DNA of 62,418 nucleotides from a virus (taxonomy: Duplodnaviria; Caudoviricetes): positions 1 through 62,418 of the IMG/VR virus record IMGVR_UViG_3300020043_005056; one strand, written 5' to 3'. Each line of letters begins with the position of its first letter. Positions within the stretch are counted from its first letter, which is position 1. The translations under genes were made by a program, and so were the position numbers. The notes beneath the pieces are model-generated. The model was not told where the DNA came from, did not search any database, and saw nothing but the letters and a program-made list of their open reading frames with translations. This document shows positions 2 to 62,418 of the stretch, one piece after another.

Positions 2-2713
2 GATGAACGTAATTTAGCTAAAGAAATAAGTTCATTAATAAAAAAATCAGGCATTAAAGAACTTACAAATGAACAACTTAAAAACATACTAAAGGTAATT
101 GACAATATAAATAATGGGTATTTACCACACTATGCTCAATTAGTTGTTGAGAAATTAAATTCTATAGAAAACGCTAAAGAATTAGAGTCAGCTATAAATA
201 AAGCAAAACCTTTACCTATATCTAAACTATATTCTAAACCAAAATCTTTAATTACAAAAAAAGATTCTATATTAGAAATGATAAGAAGGAATCCACTATT
301 CAATATAGACCAAGTTTTTGGAGATTTTAAAACAAAAGATATATTTAACTCTATACTAAAAAAGGCTGCTGAGGCTGAGGCTAAATTTACTTCTGAGTTG
401 AAAAATATTCAAGCTAAATTAGAAAAAGCAGAAGAGAATATTGCTAAATCTCACGGGCTTAATCCTAATAAAACTTTAATGTCAAAGTTTAAAATGATGA
501 CATATATGGTTCAACTTGAATATGATTCTAACCCAAATAATAAACAAGTAAATCCTGCGGCAGAATATTTAAAAACTACTATAAAACATATTGATGATGG
601 TAAATCTCAATTTGGAGAACGTGACGCTGAGATGTTGCAAAAAATATATGATAAATATACTGATTCTGAAGGAAATATTGACAATGAAAAATTATATAAT
701 TCACTTAATAACGCTGAAAAAGAAGGTGTTAAAACAATTCGTGAAATAAATGAGTCTTTAAAAGAAAAAGCAGAATACACAGGAGCCATAATTAGAGGGC
801 AAAAAATAAATCCTTTAAATAATTATGTTCATTTAAATGTTCTTCACGAGCATCAACCTAATGACTTAGCTTCAGGTACTTCATTTGCGAATGATTATAA
901 TAATTCAATGAGACCTACTACGAAAGCCAAATCATTAATAGAGAGAACCGGTAAGGTTTCTCCATTGAATTTTGATGTGTTTGCTTCTGCTCAAAGAGGT
1001 TCTAAGTTTGTACTTATGGATTATCATTTAACAGAACCTATTCGTACTGCTCGTAAAACAATGAATAAGGCAATATCTAACTTGGAATCAACAGGTAGGA
1101 TACCTAAAGAAAAAAGAAAAATAGCAAATGCAATTAGCAATGCTCTTGAGGAATCAATTAGTAATCTTATAACAAATAGTTACACTACAACTTCTATTGG
1201 AGATGATGTTATTAATTATATAAGTAAACAAGGTTATCGTTCAGTCCTTGCAGGAACAGGAAGGTTTGCTGCTGAATTTATATCAAATGTTGGTTTTGTT
1301 CTTTTGAGCGACCCTACATCGTTTGTTGAAGGTGTAAAAAATACGGGAGTAATAATGTCTTCAGATGCTCCTGCAATAATGAGTAATGTAAATAGTAAGG
1401 AGATTAATAGAATCTTCCCTACAGATACATTGTCAGGAAGAATGGTAGATACTAACATATTAAGTGAAGTAAGTGGTGTAAAAGGTGGAAAATCTAAAAA
1501 TACTGTAGTTAATAAGATTCAGCAAATTTGGAATTTATCAGGTAAAAAATATACAAATTTAGTTGAATTAAGTGCTGATATATTAATAACGACACCTGAT
1601 AAGGCTATAATGAGACCAATTTGGTTTGGTTCATTCTCTGAAAATTTTAGAAAAATAACAGGGAAAGATATAGATTTTGAAAAAATAGCAGCTAATGACG
1701 AAGTCTATATGGAAGAAAATAAAGATGCTATTGAAAAAGCAAAAAATATTGCTGACGAAAGGTCTGTTATAACAGGAGCAAGTAGTAATGCTTTTACAGG
1801 AATACTTAAAGGAACTAGCAAGCCTGAGCAAAGCAATGCTATAAAAGCTTTTAATAACTTTAATGGATTTATGAGTAAGTTCTTAATCTATGAGTTTGTT
1901 ACTGCTAGAACAGGTATAATGGCTGCTATTGGAAATGGGTCATTAACAAAGAGACAAGGAATTGCTTTATTAGGAGCTGTTACTACTCGTATGACTGTAT
2001 ATAGTTTACTTGTTAAAGCATTAGGAGAAGGAGTAGTTGGACTATTGTTTGATGAAGATGATGATGAAGATAAAAAAGCTCCTAAAGAAGCTGTAGGTCA
2101 AGCGTTAGCATCTTCATTTACATCTATGATTTTTGGTAGAGATTTTGGTAACTCAACAAAAACATTAATAAATTATGGATTAGAACGTGTAAACGAAAAT
2201 TATCTTGACTTTTTAAGAGAAGGAGAATACGACCCTTATAAAGATGCATTACAATATTCAGTAGTACCTGTTGAGAAAAAAGGAAGTCAAACAGATTTAT
2301 CTGATTTCTTATTTAATATGAGTGGGTCTTTTGGTCCTGTTATAAAAACTACTGACTTAGCAGTTAGAAAGTATTTTGAACCTGAGAAAAAAGAACTTGA
2401 AGCTATAGAAAGACAAGAAAAAGAAATAGGTGTTAGAATACCATTAGAAATATTAGGTAATTTAGGTCTTGTTCCTTTATACAAAGAAATTAGAAAATCT
2501 GTAATGAAGGATATATATAAGAAAACTTTAGAGCAACAACTTCTAGGTACTTACGAAAGTAAAGAGCAAATGAAAAAATATAATCCTAAGTTATATGAAA
2601 GAACTTTTGGAGAAGGTACAATGTATGATAGAATTAAAAAAAGAGAAGAAAAAGCAAATTTTAAATTAAAACAGCGTTTAAAAGAAATCAAATCGAGAGA
2701 AAATGAAGATTAA
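2..2713 (+). CDS. 5'-truncated C-terminal part of a giant virion/ejection-type protein (probably continues 57934..62301)
   Basis: Frame of ORF 278..2713 is open without stops back to base 2 (DERNLAKEISS...). Helical, K/E-rich, with late hydrophobic segments. Same strand and character as the gene cut at the right end. Confidence 0.75.
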   Translation, partial: DERNLAKEISSLIKKSGIKELTNEQLKNILKVIDNINNGYLPHYAQLVVEKLNSIENAKELESAINKAKPLPISKLYSKPKSLITKKDSILEMIRRNPLFNIDQVFGDFKTKDIFNSILKKAAEAEAKFTSELKNIQAKLEKAEENIAKSHGLNPNKTLMSKFKMMTYMVQLEYDSNPNNKQVNPAAEYLKTTIKHIDDGKSQFGERDAEMLQKIYDKYTDSEGNIDNEKLYNSLNNAEKEGVKTIREINESLKEKAEYTGAIIRGQKINPLNNYVHLNVLHEHQPNDLASGTSFANDYNNSMRPTTKAKSLIERTGKVSPLNFDVFASAQRGSKFVLMDYHLTEPIRTARKTMNKAISNLESTGRIPKEKRKIANAISNALEESISNLITNSYTTTSIGDDVINYISKQGYRSVLAGTGRFAAEFISNVGFVLLSDPTSFVEGVKNTGVIMSSDAPAIMSNVNSKEINRIFPTDTLSGRMVDTNILSEVSGVKGGKSKNTVVNKIQQIWNLSGKKYTNLVELSADILITTPDKAIMRPIWFGSFSENFRKITGKDIDFEKIAANDEVYMEENKDAIEKAKNIADERSVITGASSNAFTGILKGTSKPEQSNAIKAFNNFNGFMSKFLIYEFVTARTGIMAAIGNGSLTKRQGIALLGAVTTRMTVYSLLVKALGEGVVGLLFDEDDDEDKKAPKEAVGQALASSFTSMIFGRDFGNSTKTLINYGLERVNENYLDFLREGEYDPYKDALQYSVVPVEKKGSQTDLSDFLFNMSGSFGPVIKTTDLAVRKYFEPEKKELEAIERQEKEIGVRIPLEILGNLGLVPLYKEIRKSVMKDIYKKTLEQQLLGTYESKEQMKKYNPKLYERTFGEGTMYDRIKKREEKANFKLKQRLKEIKSRENED

Positions 2714-4686: not shown

Positions 4687-4712
4687 TATTTTTTTTTTAA
4701 AAATTATTTGTA

Positions 4713-31655: not shown

Positions 31656-32125
31656 TGAAAAAATATATTTTAATTTTTTTTTCTCTATTGCTATTTTCTT
31701 GTGCTGCAAGAAAAGTAAACGTAGATAAAGTAGATACCGTAGTTAAAACCGACAGTACATCTATAACTAAACAAGAAACTGTAGCAACTCAAGATAACAA
31801 TGTTAGCGTTACGACAGATACTGACGAGTTAGAGATAATCCCAATTGATACTACCAAAGTTATTGAGGTTGATGGTAAGAAGTACAAAAATGTAAAACTC
31901 AGGTATAAAAAAACAAAAAAGGTCTTAGTAGATAACACAAAAATAAAAGTGTCTGAAAAGGTCTTAATTAAAGCCAATGTTAAAAAGGCTGCTTCAGTAA
32001 AAGTATTCAAAAAAGAAATCGATAAAAAAGCTAACTACTCAATTTATTTGTGGTGGCTTTTGATTCTATTACTTATTGCATTGGCATACTATACTTATAG
32101 AAAAATCAATCGAACTTTATTTTAA
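31655..32125 (+). CDS. lipoprotein with C-terminal TM helix, unimolecular spanin candidate
   Basis: MKKYILIFFSLLLFSC lipobox, beta-rich middle, C-terminal YLWWLLILLLIALAYY. Confidence 0.65.
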   Translation: MKKYILIFFSLLLFSCAARKVNVDKVDTVVKTDSTSITKQETVATQDNNVSVTTDTDELEIIPIDTTKVIEVDGKKYKNVKLRYKKTKKVLVDNTKIKVSEKVLIKANVKKAASVKVFKKEIDKKANYSIYLWWLLILLLIALAYYTYRKINRTLF

Positions 32126-43765: not shown

Positions 43766-45184
43766 ATGGCAGGTACATTATTATCAAATCCTACTTTTGC
43801 ATTACAGCCAAGTGCTGAGCAAGTAGCATTGCAGACAAATTATATTACTAACTTCAACTTCTTGAATCAGTATCTTCCTGATACTTACGAAAAAGAATTT
43901 GAGCGTTATGGTAATAGAACCATCGCATCATTCTTGAGAATGGTAGGTGCTGAGATGCCTTCAAACTCTGACCAAATCAAATGGGCAGAACAAGGTCGTC
44001 TTCACATTAAATACACCAACATTACTTCTGCGGCAGCAATTAACGCTAACACAGCAACTTTCACAGTAGCTGATTCAGGTGTTACTTACATCGCAATTAG
44101 AATTGGTCAAACAGTTATGATTCAGAACAACACTACAGGTGTATTCAACAAAGCAATCGTAACTGCTGTTCCTTCTGCAACTACTTTTACAGTAGCTTAC
44201 TATGAGGCTACAGGACAAGCATTTGCTGTATCTACAGTTTGTACTGTATTTATCTATGGTTCTGAGTTCAAAAAAGGAACTAATGGAATGATTGGTTCAT
44301 TAGAGTCAGAAGATGATATCTACAGCAACAACCCTATTATCTTAAAAGATAAATATGCGGTTAATGGTTCTGATATGGCTCAAATCGGATGGGTTGAAGT
44401 TACTACTGAAAATGGTGCTACAGGTTATCTGTGGTATTTGAAATCAGAACACGAAACTCGTTTACGTTTTGAAGACTACATCGAAACTGCAATGATTGAA
44501 GCAGTTCCTGCCGCTACCGGTTCGGGTGCTAAAACAGCAGGTATGATGGGGTCTGAAGGTATCTTCTATGTTGTAAACAATAGAGGTAACGTATGGGGCG
44601 GTGGTTCTCCAACTTCTTTGACTGAGTGGGATACAATTGTTTCTCGTTTGGACAAGCAAGGTGCTATCGAAGAAAACGTAATTTTCGTTAATCGTGGATT
44701 GTCTTTTGACATCGACAATATGTTGGCAACATTAAACGGATATAACGGAGTAAATGCTGCCGGTGCTGCATCTTACGGTTTATTCGACAATGACGTTGAT
44801 ATGGCTTTGAACTTAGGTTTCACAGGATTCCGTAGAGGTTATGATTTCTACAAGTCTGATTGGAAATACCTAAACGACCCAACTATGAGAGGTGGATTGA
44901 ACAATGCTGCTGCTACAGCAACAGGTACAATCACAGGTCTTATGGTTCCTGCCGGTTCTACTTCAGTGTACGACCAAATTATGGGTAAAAACGCTAAGAG
45001 ACCTTTCTTACACGTTAGATACCGTGCTTCAGAAGCTGAAGACCGTAGATACAAAACGTGGATTACAGGTTCTGCCGGTGGTGCTCAAACATCTGACTTA
45101 GATGCAATGGAGGTTAACTTCTTGTCTGAAAGATGTGTATGTACTTTAGGTGCGAACAACTTCGTATTATTCCGTTTCGGATAG
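43766..45184 (+). CDS. major capsid protein
   Basis: Position, 472 aa, strongly biased codons (TTC, AAC, ATC, CGT) typical of high expression. Confidence 0.85.
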   Translation: MAGTLLSNPTFALQPSAEQVALQTNYITNFNFLNQYLPDTYEKEFERYGNRTIASFLRMVGAEMPSNSDQIKWAEQGRLHIKYTNITSAAAINANTATFTVADSGVTYIAIRIGQTVMIQNNTTGVFNKAIVTAVPSATTFTVAYYEATGQAFAVSTVCTVFIYGSEFKKGTNGMIGSLESEDDIYSNNPIILKDKYAVNGSDMAQIGWVEVTTENGATGYLWYLKSEHETRLRFEDYIETAMIEAVPAATGSGAKTAGMMGSEGIFYVVNNRGNVWGGGSPTSLTEWDTIVSRLDKQGAIEENVIFVNRGLSFDIDNMLATLNGYNGVNAAGAASYGLFDNDVDMALNLGFTGFRRGYDFYKSDWKYLNDPTMRGGLNNAAATATGTITGLMVPAGSTSVYDQIMGKNAKRPFLHVRYRASEAEDRRYKTWITGSAGGAQTSDLDAMEVNFLSERCVCTLGANNFVLFRFG

Positions 45185-57933: not shown

Positions 57934-60900
57934 ATGAACGAAGAAGCAATCCAAGACTCGTATAATGTATTTGTATCACAAGGATATACGAAAAGTATTG
58001 ATGAATATAAAAAATTGATAAATAGTAATCCTGAAGCGCTTAATGACTCTTATAAAGCTTTTGCAAGTCAAGGATACACTAGAAGTATTGATGATTATAA
58101 AGCATTAATGGGTATTGGAACTCAACCTAAAGTAAAAAAAAAAGACGCTACAGAATCTTCTACAAGCTCTCAGGCAAGAGCTATGGTATCGCCATCGGTT
58201 CCTACTTCATCGGTTACACAACCAATTGATGAAGAAGAAGATTATTTTACAGGAAGTTTTGGAAATGTATTAAGAGGATTTGATAATATAGTTCCATTAG
58301 GAATTGGAGACTTTGTAGATGATATGGCGCGTAGTGTTGCATCAGGATACAGACAAGGAGATGTAGCTCAAGCGGCTAACGACTTATTGTTAAAGGGTCA
58401 TAAAGCAACTCCTGAGCAATTACAAAAATTTATAGACGCAAACAAAAACGCTCAACAGATGAAACCATCTGATGAGATGAATGAATATAATAAAATCTAC
58501 GAAGAAGAAGGAAAAGGATTTTGGGGAGTTATCAAAGGATTAGTCAATAATCCAACTGTTATACCTGAGGTATTAACAAGTTCACTTACTTCAATGGCTA
58601 CAAATACCGATGCATTAAAAGCAGGAGTTGCGGCTATCGGAACAGGTGCAGCTATTGGAGCTACTACAGGAGGAACAGCAGGTGCTGTTGCAGGTTCAGT
58701 TGTACCTGTAGCAGGTACTGCGGTAGTTGGAGCAGGAGGTGCTGCTGCGGGGGCTTTAAGTGGCGCAGCATCAGCTGTTCCTTATGCATTTGGTTTAGCA
58801 AGTACTGTAGTTGAAACAGGCGCTACATTTGGAGAGCTTTTGACAGAAGAGTTGGGAGGAAAAGAAATGACAAAAGAAAATGTAAGAGCTATTCTTGAAG
58901 ACCCAAATAAATTACAATCAATTAGAAATAAAGCTATAGCTAGAGGTATAGTAATAGGAACTGTAGATGCTCTCACAGGAAAACTTGCATCAGGAGTAGG
59001 TGCTAAAATACTTTCAAAATCAGCCGCAAAATCAGCTACAGGTGTTGCTACAAGAAAAGCTGTTACTAAATCAGTCGCAACAGGAGCTGCTATTGAATCA
59101 GCAGGAGGGTCTTTGGGAGAATTTTCAGCTAGAGCTGTTACAGGTCAAGATATGGATGTATCTGAGATAGCACTTGAAGGTCTTGCTGAATTACCCGGTG
59201 GTGTTAGGTCAACCATTCAGGCTAAATTTGCCAAACCTTCATACGAAGTAAATGGTCAAAAAGTAACCGCAGAAGATATTGATGAGTTAACAAGAACAAT
59301 GACTCCTGAGCAATTATATGCTACAAAAATTGTAATAAAAAATGACTACGAAGGTAGAATGTTTAAAATACAAGATAAGGTAGTTACTAATTCAGTTAAA
59401 CAACAAGTAAGACAAGCTAACCCTGACCTTAATGAACCAAGTCTAAATGCTATTACTCAATTAGAGAAAGAATTACAAACCTTAGAAGGAAATAAAACAC
59501 AAACAGGTAAAGATAAAGCTTCTCTATTGAGAAGTAAAATCAAAGATATTCAAGAAAATCAATTAGAAGATGAGGTTGCTGCACAAACAATAGAAGTACC
59601 TGTTATTGATGAGAAAAATGGAACATTTTATATTACAAATAAAGAAGGAGTAACAAAAGGATATAAAACAAAAGCAGAAGCAGAAGCTGAATTAGAAACC
59701 CTTAAAACTAAAGATTATGCCGTTCAAGAGCAAACAACAGATGAAAGCGTGTTACGCGCAGAACAACCCGAATTGGAATTGCAAGGAGTGGGCGAAAGAA
59801 ACGCCAAACCTGAAGGAGTTACCGAAGAAACTATCACTACTGAGAAACCGGAAGAAGAAGTAGAACCAAGTATGCCTATAAAAGATGCCATAGCAGATGA
59901 GGTTGGTGTTTATTATTATAACGGAGAAAAAGGTCAGGTAAATTTAGATGGTCAGACAGTTGTGTTTGAAACCAATGATAAACTATTTGATTTAGGCAAC
60001 GTAGAAGAATTATCTGAAAATACATTAGAAGAATTTGGAATTAGCAAAGAACAAGAATTAAACTTAAAACTTAATGATGATAATAGCATTGAGTTAAACG
60101 GAAAGAAGTACAATAATAACTATAGCGACCCTGAATCAGCATTTAGTAAAGACAAAGATGGAAACTATAGTGTTACTCTCGATACCGAGAATGGTCAAAA
60201 AAGAACATTTAGAGGTCAACAAGCAGACCAAATAGTTTACGAAACAAGACTTAAAAACTTTGAAAAAAATGGAACCGAACAACAAATCGAAGAAGCCAAC
60301 GCAGCCGCAGACGAGGCTATCAGAATTGAAACAGAAGTTAGAACAACTTCCCCTGAGCGAAAGGGTAAAAGTGTTAGAAAAGCTAAACAAAGAACTTTAA
60401 AAACAGTTCAAGAGCCTTTAAGTAAAGTCGAGAGAGAACAAATTGCAGCTGAAGAAAAAAGAGTAGCAGATGAAAAAACTCAAGCTGATTTAGAAAAAAG
60501 TCAAACACCTGTTGAGGATTTTGACAATCTTACTCGCTCAGAGAATAAAGCTATTGGAGGAGAAATGGTTGAATTTTCATTTAAGGGTAGTGATGGAGAG
60601 ATTCATAAAGTAAAAACTCTTGTTGATGATGCAACAGGATATGTTGGTCTTACTCAGGTTGATGGAAAAACATTCTCAAGATTTGATAAAGAAGCCGAAG
60701 AATATTATAGAAAATTAAAACAACAAAAAATAGATTCTGAGAAAACTGACGCAGAAACTAAGAAAAAATTACAAAAAGGTAATGTAAAGCAAATAGAAAA
60801 AGATTTAGAAACAACCAAAAGAAGTTATGAGCAAAGAGATTCAGATATTTCTGTTGAGTTTTTTGAATCATTATCAGGAGGTTCTATTACAAGGCAAGAA

Positions 60901-62301
60901 ATCAATGCCGAAATACAAAAAATACCAAGATATAAAGCTGAATTAAAAGCAGAGTATGAAGCTAAAAAAGCTGAATTAGAAAAAAAATTAAAAGAAGCTA
61001 AGAGTAAGTTAGAGCCTAAGACTGAAACTAAAGTTGACGAAGTAAAAGACCTTCTTAATTTAGATACCAAGGACAAAACAAGTCTTAAAAAGGTATCTGA
61101 TTATTTAGACAGGTTGGATAAATCATTGGATATAAACCCTAACGAACTTAATGACGTAACGAGAGTTATGGCTATAGGAACAGCTAAAGCTGTTATCAAA
61201 ACATTAAAAGCTTTAGTTGATGCCGGTATTACTTTACAAGAGGCTATTAGAATTGCATCAGAGACTTATAAATTAAAAGAAGAGCAAATAGTTGAAGCCT
61301 TAGATATTGTTTCTAAATTAAATGAAAACAAAAGCGAGGGCATATCTGAACTTGAACTGAAAGGTTATAACAAGCTATCTAAAATCATAGACAGTGCAAT
61401 TTCAAACGGTAAGACGATAGATAATGTTCTTAACTATATGAATAGGTCAGAAGTATATAAAAGTGCCTCAGATGTACAAAAAGAACTATTGGTTCGTGAT
61501 GTACGTAAAAGATTTGGTTTAAAAGAAAAGTCAGCTCCATCAGTAGCAAAGTTGTTTGGTAAAGTTAAAGATATTACTAAAATAACTATGACTGAAAAAC
61601 AAGGTCTTATAAAACAAATTAAAGATACAGCAAAAGGGGCAAGAGAAGCTGTAAAAGCTTTTAAATTAGCAAGTCAGCAATTAACTAAAGATATTAAAGA
61701 ATTAAAAGAATCAGGTAAAATTACGTCTACTCAATTAGCAAATGTACTTGTTAAATTTAGTAAAGTAAATGTGCTTAATGAAGCGTCTGTGTCTAATTTT
61801 GTTGACTATATGACAAAGGTATTTGCTGATGCAGATTATGTAAATAAAATTGAAACTGCTAAAAGTAATTTAAAAATAGCTAAGAAAAATATCGTTACTA
61901 AGTTAGGTATAGCTGATGGTTTAATCCTTCCATTACAAAGATTGTTCGCAATTAATCCAACAATGATACCGGATGCTTATTTAGGGAAGTATTTAAGCTT
62001 AGTAGATATGTTCGGAAAGAGACAAGCTGTGCTTACTCTTGAAGAAAAATCTCAAATAATAAAAGATGTTCAAGAAATACTTGATGAAATAAATAATGAA
62101 AAATCTTTAGTTGATGAATTGTCTGATAGGTTTAATAACTCAGACAATAAAGTATTTACTGATGGTAAACTTGATTACGCAGCTTCATTAGAGAAAATGC
62201 TTAAAGAGGGAGACATTGACAATGATGATGTCGCACTAATGAAAAAATACAAAAAAGACATTACTCCTAAAGTAGAAAAAAGTGAATTAACAGAAGAAGA
62301 A
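57934..62301 (+). CDS. giant internal virion/ejection protein, N-terminal part (3' end lost at a chimeric junction)
   Basis: Two 31-aa N-terminal repeats, Gly/Ala hydrophobic block, long charged helices; the last 23 aa of the listed ORF are copied from gene 4094..4402. Confidence 0.8.
58134..58229 (+). other. candidate -1 frameshift site (A10) and alternative C-terminus
   Basis: GTA AAA AAA AAA GAC; the -1 frame reads RRYRIFYKLSGKSYGIAIGSYFIGYTTN*. Confidence 0.5.
59717..59863 (+). CDS. 48-aa overprinted gene in the +1 frame
   Basis: MPFKSKQQMKACYAQNNPNWNCKEWAKETPNLKELPKKLSLLRNRKKK; A-rich leader; local codon anomaly in the main frame. Confidence 0.65.
   Translation: MPFKSKQQMKACYAQNNPNWNCKEWAKETPNLKELPKKLSLLRNRKKK
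60269..60400 (+). CDS. 43-aa overprinted gene in the +1 frame
   Basis: MEPNNKSKKPTQPQTRLSELKQKLEQLPLSERVKVLEKLNKEL; A-rich leader; amphipathic helices. Confidence 0.5.
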   Translation: MEPNNKSKKPTQPQTRLSELKQKLEQLPLSERVKVLEKLNKEL

Positions 62302-62418
62302 ATTCAAGAGTGCAACCACATTACTTTTTCAGTTAACGAGTTGATGAAGGAGACAAACGTATCAGTTTCGTAAAAAACGTATCAATTCCGTAAAAAACGT
62401 AAATGAAGGAAAGTCAAA
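62302..62418 (-). repeat. 117-bp exact inverted copy of 4049-4165
   Basis: Base-by-base reverse-complement match; same C-terminal peptide IQECNHITFSVNELMKETNVSVS. Confidence 0.95.

Follow-up and report, generated by a model that had tools for sequence, protein, structure and literature searches.

The giant virion-protein gene and its A10 run

The stretch of DNA analyzed here (the window) is the whole 62,418-base virus record IMGVR_UViG_3300020043_005056, whose set of open reading frames (ORFs) includes a large terminase subunit, a portal protein and virion structural proteins. The subject of this work is a run of ten A (A10) close to the start of the giant virion-protein gene located at the end of the record (positions 57934-62373, plus strand, 1479 codons), at which a one-base slip would give rise to a second, short protein. 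The gene matched phrog_32588 (function not assigned) over positions 6-533 of 1686. No Pfam family was matched, and the PHROG match was not to a chaperone family. For the tape-measure protein no match was obtained among the 14 window ORFs scanned. DNA similarity to cultured phages consisted solely of a distant match to the Flavobacterium Elemovirus podophages. The run, the putative slip site, occupies positions 58134-58143 of the plus strand, where the standard (0) frame reads GTA AAA AAA AAA (V-K-K-K), and it is the sole run of nine or more A on the plus strand of the window. Runs of nine or more T were also observed on this strand. One of them, a T9 run at 31674-31682, lies within the start of a signal-peptide-like ORF (MKKYILIFFSLLLFSC), and the remaining three (at 4689, 20694 and 21421) appear intergenic. 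The initial annotation had proposed a -1 frameshift at A10 yielding an isoform of about 98 residues. The repeats, the A10 run, the two reading frames, the codon usage and the inverted repeat which it had described were all found in place when checked against the sequence.

All further features of this region lie on the plus strand. Upstream of the run, positions 57934-58131 encode an N-terminal module common to both predicted isoforms. It is composed of two helix-loop-helix repeats of about 31 amino acids (residues 3-33 and 34-64), with the translated pattern E-A-x-x-D-S-Y-x-x-F-x-S-Q-G-Y-T-x-S-I-D-x-Y-K-x-L. AlphaFold2 predicted four helices for residues 1-60, with values of the predicted local distance difference test (pLDDT) of 79-87. 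When six N-terminal modules were compared with Pfam, none scored above cut-off. For the module of the window (57934-58134) a sub-threshold match to the T7 capsid assembly (scaffolding) protein PF05396 was recorded (E = 0.0095, 16.8 bits at a cut-off of 27.1), which is given as a lead only. A second copy of the module was not found in the window.

Downstream of the run, two frames overlap. In the 0 frame, residues 71-100 of the long isoform form an S/T/P-rich linker (58144-58233; DATESSTSSQARAMVSPSVPTSSVTQP), in agreement with the low complexity seen by the initial annotation. AlphaFold2 gave pLDDT values of 30-43 for residues 63-103, and the linker is therefore predicted to be disordered, the sort of region that can tolerate a second frame. 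In the -1 frame, an ORF of 28 codons (RRYRIFYKLSGKSYGIAIGSYFIGYTTN) extends from 58143 to 58229 and includes the stop codon TGA at 58227-58229. This ORF contains no ATG, GTG or TTG. The predicted slipped product has 70 + 28 = 98 residues; SYGIAIGSYFIGYTTN is a peptide from this -1 tail, with KKK/RR as the junction. The motif conserved in the family (see below) is represented in the window by Y-G-I-A-I-G-S-Y-F-I-G-Y at 58182-58217.

The codons of the tail were found to resemble those of the capsid gene, as the initial annotation had claimed. TTC accounted for 2/2 Phe, ATC for 4/4 Ile, TAC for 4/5 Tyr and GGT for 3/4 Gly codons in the tail, versus 3/38 (TTC), 13/86 (ATC) and 9/41 (TAC) in the giant gene's own frame. 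The values for the capsid-like gene at 43766-45184 were 17/24, 13/27 and 12/23, respectively.

Conservation of the run among related genes

The conservation of the run was analyzed in 48 relatives in which the region of the site was covered. They were chosen by protein similarity, and neither the run nor the tail was used for their selection. Using the first 572 residues as query yielded 26 loci, of which one broke off ahead of the site. Another 17 contigs came from a profile (alignment A1) built on the domain following the linker, the C-terminal part of the protein added five records without the A1 domain, and GenBank record MW202828 was included. With the upstream 612-amino-acid protein as query, just 2 related loci were found, a number too small to be of use. 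A run of nine or more A was present at the homologous junction, at codon 43-89, in 47 of the 48 relatives. Counting the window, the 48 run-bearing genes carried 9 A in 10 cases, 10 A in 36, 11 A in 1 and 12 A in 1. Carriers thus had runs of 9-12 and never of 7-8. In the window and in L001-L023, the first 400 nt of the gene contained exactly one such run each.

The run was retained in very different surroundings. The N-terminal modules preceding it fell into six or more sequence types unrelated to one another, and the domain following the linker was swapped in five records, all of which had the run. The encoded peptide also varied, being E-K-K-N in L017 (A10), L-K-K-N in L064 (A9) and Q-K-K-K in L008 (A10). 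As the run persists where the peptide is EKKN, LKKN or QKKK, it is the nucleotides that are kept and not the KKK peptide. The 0 frame was maintained throughout: in all 47 run-bearing relatives the run length left it in phase downstream, and in 46 of these it was then open to the end of the locus. Considering all 49 genes, 47 were open to the end of the locus examined, the exceptions being the window, with a stop at the end of the record, and L025, with a stop at codon 132. In the latter (L025:3001-3400) the 0 frame stops after 132 codons and the long ORF resumes in another frame. This copy is broken or mis-assembled, with an intact A10 run and -1 tail (…YGFFIAGWFFGFVRRRVTAK).

The closest cultured relative found bears a podovirus name (vB_FspP), and MW202828 is titled Podoviridae sp. 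The Flavobacterium Elemovirus phages carry A10 at the corresponding place. In the cultured Flavobacterium phage vB_FspP_elemoA (L260; MT497017.1, 50563-61647) A10 was observed at codon ~57 of an 11-kb gene for a 'structural protein'. Its 0 frame reads D-P-E-K-K-N, and its -1 ORF of 46 codons is rich in aromatic residues and glycine (…NNWGFGIFCWER) and merely loosely motif-like.

A conserved, probably protein-coding -1 frame behind the run

In the 47 genes with a complete tail, the -1 frame was open for 16-52 codons past the run; the locus of L024 ends 13 codons into the tail. In 44 of 48 genes ATG, GTG and TTG were absent from the -1 ORF. On its 5' side the ORF was bounded by a stop located 2-34 codons before the run's end. 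The family consensus of the tail was Y-G-I-x-F-G-R-W-F-F-G-Φ-x-[RK]. Defining a strict motif as [YFW]-G-[IVF]-x-[FCILY]-[GRW]-x-[WYF]-[FC]-[IFAC]-G-Φ, 37 of 48 tails (33 of 43 distinct ones) were found to carry it, and 44 of 48 had a looser form. In tails with the strict motif, the -1 stop mostly followed 3-5 codons further on. Translating 911 kb in all six frames gave 52 occurrences of the strict motif, in each case at most 220 nt downstream of a run of nine or more A; this count was made before any motif-based sequence collection. Run and -1 ORF thus recurred in 47 of 48 relatives picked regardless of either, which argues against chance.

The substitution pattern was analyzed with four different anchorings. 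For the motif block (12 codons, 21 distinct sequences), the entropy at -1-frame positions 1/2/3 was 0.92/0.85/1.20. The ratio of nonsynonymous to synonymous differences per site (pN/pS, Nei-Gojobori) of the block was 0.57 in the -1 frame (core set 0.35), 1.04 in the 0 frame (core set 1.28) and 1.33 in the +1 frame (core set 1.61), with a bias favouring the -1 frame, as the block was located by a -1-frame regular expression. An alignment guided by the 0 frame, biased the opposite way, gave entropies of 0.79/1.25/1.14 at 0-frame positions 1/2/3 of the overlap zone versus 0.58/0.36/1.20 in the domain that comes next. What is a second position in the 0 frame is a third position in the -1 frame. 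Wilcoxon tests on this alignment yielded p = 0.03 for position 2 versus 1 and p = 0.58 (not significant) for position 2 versus 3. In a frame-blind nucleotide alignment of the overlap the values were 1.00/1.29/1.03, again with the 0-frame second positions highest. Finally, for 96 further distinct sequences, the 24 nt upstream of the DNA search pattern given below showed 1.25/1.06/1.57 at -1-frame positions 1/2/3, and glycine occupied the two glycine columns of this stretch in 87 and 76 of the 96. The third positions of the -1 frame were the most variable in all four analyses. As judged from these sequences, substitutions follow the pattern of a protein-coding -1 frame, and the run, the open frame, the motif and the position of the stop are conserved. 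The test named in the initial annotation, whether run and -1 peptide are conserved above the 0 frame, consequently came out positive (pN/pS 0.57 versus 1.04).

Breadth of the cassette across viral sequences

The DNA pattern A9-N(20-50)-TGGTTYWTYGG, searched in the viral collection, gave at least 120 matches. Matches were counted as members when the motif frame was -1 relative to a long ORF, the run lay 25-115 codons past the first ATG and a -1 stop followed soon after. Among the 120 matches listed, at least 105 were members, 3 were cut by locus ends and 12 looked like chance matches. The 105 members listed comprised 97 distinct tails and many module types, and in 68 of them the -1 stop was located 4-5 codons past W-F-x-G. 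Searching with the tail alone (Y-G-I-x-F-G-x-W-F-[FI]-G) yielded at least 103 distinct matches; 84 had nine or more A upstream, one had A8 and 18 had no such run. In all DNA collected, at least 169 distinct motif contexts were present, 150 with a run of nine or more A upstream. Going by these counts, the poly-A cassette is common to well over a hundred related phages. In the phage collection, tblastn with the 28-amino-acid tail and with the C-terminal part of the gene gave no match.

Slippery heptamers in relatives without the run

We then considered the 17 tail-bearing genes without a run of nine or more A together with L061. In 12 of these 18 an in-phase X_XXY_YYZ heptamer was located at the start of the open -1 ORF. 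Five had G_GGA_AAG, which we take to be the heptamer of phage lambda, three had G_GGA_AAT, G_GGA_AAA or G_GGA_AAC, two had A_AAA_AAG, two had A_AAA_AAA (one of them also G_GGA_AAG) and one had T_TTT_TTA. The remaining six genes carried xxA_AAG at this spot. The background of in-phase G_GGA_AAN in long ORFs of the same loci was 117 per 513,865 codons, so that about 0.1 was expected in roughly 490 open -1-frame codons (summed by hand) versus eight seen. Tails of the heptamer type carried an extra C-x-C stretch. Examples of run-less heptamer relatives are L061:2374-2454, L268, L283, L316, L328, L336, L349, L270, L263, L343 and L335.

Minimum-energy folds placed a hairpin 6-7 nt past the heptamer in 7 of 11 heptamer genes. 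Individually, these hairpins were not significant (z -0.04 to -2.67), and RNAalifold found no consensus for the 11 sequences. From their sequences, the run-less relatives with a heptamer appear to carry the same cassette in a form that would rely on classical ribosomal -1 frameshifting. Lineages losing the run would have kept access to the tail by another type of slip site, which implies that the trans-frame product is what selection keeps. The retention of the tail in these lineages would be hard to explain otherwise.

Downstream RNA structure and features of the putative slip site

For the relatives with an A-run, RNAalifold predicted 0 conserved pairs past the run in 38 sequences, and the window's own fold was unremarkable (z = -1.58). 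The small hairpin noted by the initial annotation, an AGCTCT/AGAGCT inverted repeat (58165-58170 and 58177-58182), is indeed present 21 nt past the run; it is not conserved. As a stimulator of frameshifting this hairpin was rejected, given its distance and the 0 pairs found in the 38 relatives.

An in-phase A_AAA_AAA is contained in every run, and L008 has A_AAA_AAG. Among the features of a canonical -1 ribosomal site, the slippery heptamer and a substitution pattern of purifying selection on the trans-frame ORF were found, and a conserved stimulatory structure 5-9 nt downstream was not found in the 38 sequences. Among those of a transcriptional slippage site, both an A-run of at least about nine and its conservation with the standard frame kept were observed.

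Proposed recoding at A10 and alternative explanations

Taken together, A10 very probably serves as a programmed slip site through which the giant protein and a trans-frame protein of about 98 residues would be made from one gene, and on the findings given above the frameshift and short isoform proposed by the initial annotation are supported. Standard decoding would cross A10 and give the giant protein, consisting of the N-terminal module, the disordered linker and more than 1400 residues in total (probably about 2400, see below). In a fraction of expression events the frame would move back by one at the run, and 28 codons would be decoded in the -1 frame up to the stop. We infer the occurrence of the slip itself from these patterns. 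The short protein would combine the helical two-repeat module, a basic stretch (KKKRR) and the conserved aromatic/glycine tail. In the family, the tail has basic residues on either side of an aromatic/glycine core (K-K-K-R-R-Y-G-I-x-F-G-R-W-F-F-G-Φ-x-R/K).

Several points weigh against this interpretation. One relative, L061, lacks the run. We are aware of the fact that the relatives are non-independent samples and that the statistics ignore kinship. The strict motif was failed by 11 of 48 tails, L014, L016, L020, L021 and L027 being weak, and the tail of the window itself (SYGIAIGSYFIGY) is a divergent copy without Trp. The motif-anchored pN/pS values carry the bias stated above, the comparison of positions 2 and 3 in the 0-frame-guided alignment was not significant, and the entropy differences were moderate in both alignments made without motif anchoring. 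Of the 162 Lys codons in the giant gene 139 are AAA (86%), so that KKK easily gives A9. In the search of sequencing runs, no RNA run with the window sequence was found, and DNA runs shared at most 0.14 of the sampled words.

The same product would result whether RNA polymerase inserts an extra A or the ribosome slips by -1. Transcriptional slippage sites are also used by insertion sequence (IS) elements. We lean slightly toward RNA polymerase slippage adding one A, because carriers never had fewer than nine A and conserved downstream structure was absent, over a ribosomal -1 shift on A_AAA_AAA, which we place a little below even odds; both may contribute. It counts against this preference that it draws solely on run length and on the absence of conserved structure, and that these hosts can probably also support ribosomal shifting, to go by the heptamer-bearing relatives. 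A slip that is purely ribosomal, with a tandem -1 shift of two Lys-tRNAs on A_AAA_AAA and no part for the polymerase, appears unlikely. The heptamer present in every run would allow it (A_AAA_AAG in L008), as would the G_GGA_AAN or A_AAA_AAG heptamers, of the classical ribosomal type, which run-less relatives have in the corresponding position, and the hairpins predicted 6-7 nt past 7 of 11 of these. However, the heptamer needs just seven A, whereas all 47 run-bearing relatives have at least nine; no conserved structure follows the A-run, and the hairpins past the heptamers were neither individually significant nor supported by a consensus.

Three further explanations do without programmed slippage and were considered improbable to different degrees. 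Replication slippage could alter the run at the DNA level, such that individual genomes encode either the giant or the short protein. In one tail-bearing contig (L261:1056-1349, minus strand) an A8 run places module and tail in one frame. Moreover, public protein calls of 53-172 amino acids found with the L261 ORF gave 12 matches, six of which are in-frame fusions of module and -1 tail (P0002, the product of L261 itself, P0003, P0004, P0006, P0010 and P0013) and two of which are fusions in the +1 frame (P0005 and P0007). These short in-frame calls may represent DNA variants, RNA-derived assemblies or homopolymer sequencing errors. An out-of-frame run length was seen in none of the 47 run-bearing relatives and just in L261 among the at least 103 tail-selected matches. 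Heptamer relatives cannot vary in phase yet keep the tail, and a genome locked in the short state would be without its giant virion protein. Such phase variation is accordingly regarded as very improbable.

Even less probable is the absence of any recoding, with K-K-K needed in the protein (e.g., for cleavage by a protease or as a charged hinge) and the -1 motif as a by-product of a conserved 0-frame linker. In its favour, most relatives read K-K-K in the 0 frame, and the linker is recurrently S/T-rich (e.g., S-P-S-x-x-G-S-S). Nevertheless, the run persists with the other peptides named above, heptamer relatives without KKK retain the tail, the position of the -1 stop is conserved and the 0-frame linker is predicted to be disordered. 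In the overlap, 0-frame second positions were the most variable and the 0-frame pN/pS was at least 1. The frame-specific substitution pattern already largely refutes this explanation. The least probable of all is that the -1 ORF forms a small overlapping gene of its own, with separate initiation. Nothing was found in favour of this explanation, and it was rejected as the -1 ORF has no start codon (no ATG, GTG or TTG in 44 of 48 genes) and is bounded on its 5' side by the stop 2-34 codons before the run's end.

Returning to the preferred reading, programmed slippage at A10, the role of the short protein can only be guessed at: with low confidence, we suggest a virion or assembly partner which shares the docking module of the giant protein and is supplied in a fixed proportion. 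A tentative extension, to which we assign well below even chances, is that the short protein is an essential, conserved virion or ejection component in a large phage clade, for which one cultured relative, infecting Flavobacterium, was found. It would unite a swappable docking module with a basic, membrane-active aromatic/glycine tail and be produced at a fixed ratio to the giant protein, and its slip site would have been exchanged repeatedly between an A-run of the RNA polymerase type and a G_GGA_AAG or A_AAA_AAG heptamer with hairpin of the ribosomal type. A complex prediction for four copies of the 32-residue -1 peptide gave a score of 0.02 and a mark of 0.32, values that point in neither direction.

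Ends of the record and true length of the giant gene

The giant gene probably continues across the ends of the circularly permuted record at positions 2-2713 (plus strand), which matched phrog_32588 over positions 884-1682 of 1686. Across this point the homologous ORF runs on without interruption in 65 of 68 relatives. In the window, the 110 nt at 62309-62418 are non-homologous to the 67 nt found at the same place in L065. They contain a 20-nt tandem-like repeat (AAAACGTATCA..CGT) and create both the stop at 62371-62373 and a +1 offset; the stretch may have arisen as an artefact at the contig end or by local insertion. The giant gene is thus probably cut by the ends of the record, with a true protein of about 2400 residues. 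In the remaining 3 of 68 relatives (L083, L084 and L085) a stop was observed in the giant ORF about 130-300 codons upstream of position 2501, before the C-terminal part. In some phages the giant protein may be split over two genes.

Comparison with known recoding systems

In the literature on slippage in phage virion genes, Cellulophaga phage frameshifts, internal virion proteins of podoviruses and Elemovirus or Baltic Flavobacterium phages, no description of this site was found. The terms Flavobacter, Cellulophaga and AAAAAAA did not occur in the available part of the PRFect paper (PMC10885494), nor did frameshift or elemo in the available part of PMC7077304. No slip is marked in the annotated records MT497017 and MW202828. 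The kind of recoding is known; the novelty lies in the gene family, in a conserved tail of such length and in the exchange of one type of slip site for another. The cassette would mean that a large group of environmental phages has a widespread protein absent from their annotation (at least 169 distinct contexts). The short protein would be missed by gene callers, and a one-base homopolymer difference in an assembly would break the giant gene. The Flavobacterium Elemovirus phages offer a cultured entry point.

Among viruses, the P3N-PIPO protein of potyviruses is produced by polymerase slippage at GA6 into a short conserved ORF overlapping a very large one, according to the available part of PMC5009743. 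Both systems share a conserved ORF without start codon inside a giant ORF, a one-base slip at an A-run and a product composed of the N-terminal part and a trans-frame tail. Unlike the DNA phages considered here, potyviruses are RNA viruses with their own RNA-dependent polymerase and a eukaryotic host. In phage lambda, as outlined in the same source, a conserved -1 shift in a structural module provides gpG and gpGT, two proteins with a common N-terminus in a fixed ratio. The lambda shift lengthens the protein, whereas the shift proposed here shortens it; furthermore, the giant gene matches phrog_32588 and not a chaperone family, and the closest cultured relative found and MW202828 are named as podoviruses. 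The features of a G/GT tail assembly chaperone pair, i.e., a chaperone-family gene, a location upstream of the tape-measure gene and a lengthening shift, were not found for the giant gene.

The closest parallel in outcome is provided by the bacterial dnaX gene. According to the available part of PMC1088944, dnaX of Thermus thermophilus uses RNA polymerase slippage on an A9 run, and E. coli dnaX reaches the same outcome by ribosomal frameshifting on A_AAA_AAG. The same source gives about nine bases as the length from which slippage, and selection against A/T runs, is seen in many bacteria. In dnaX as in the phage genes, a full-length and a truncated product with a common N-terminus derive from one gene, the slip site is an A-run or an A-rich heptamer, and lineages reach the same product by different types of slip, for the phages as read from sequence alone. 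They differ in that the phage tail comprises 16-52 codons with a conserved motif, compared to few residues before the stop in dnaX, and in that the slip takes place at codon ~70 of more than 1400 in a phage virion gene, compared to late in the gene in dnaX. The family described here offers a natural comparison of A-runs and classical heptamers for the same product. If true, the exchange of slip sites would make it the viral equivalent of dnaX, with recoding at both levels having evolved towards a single product.

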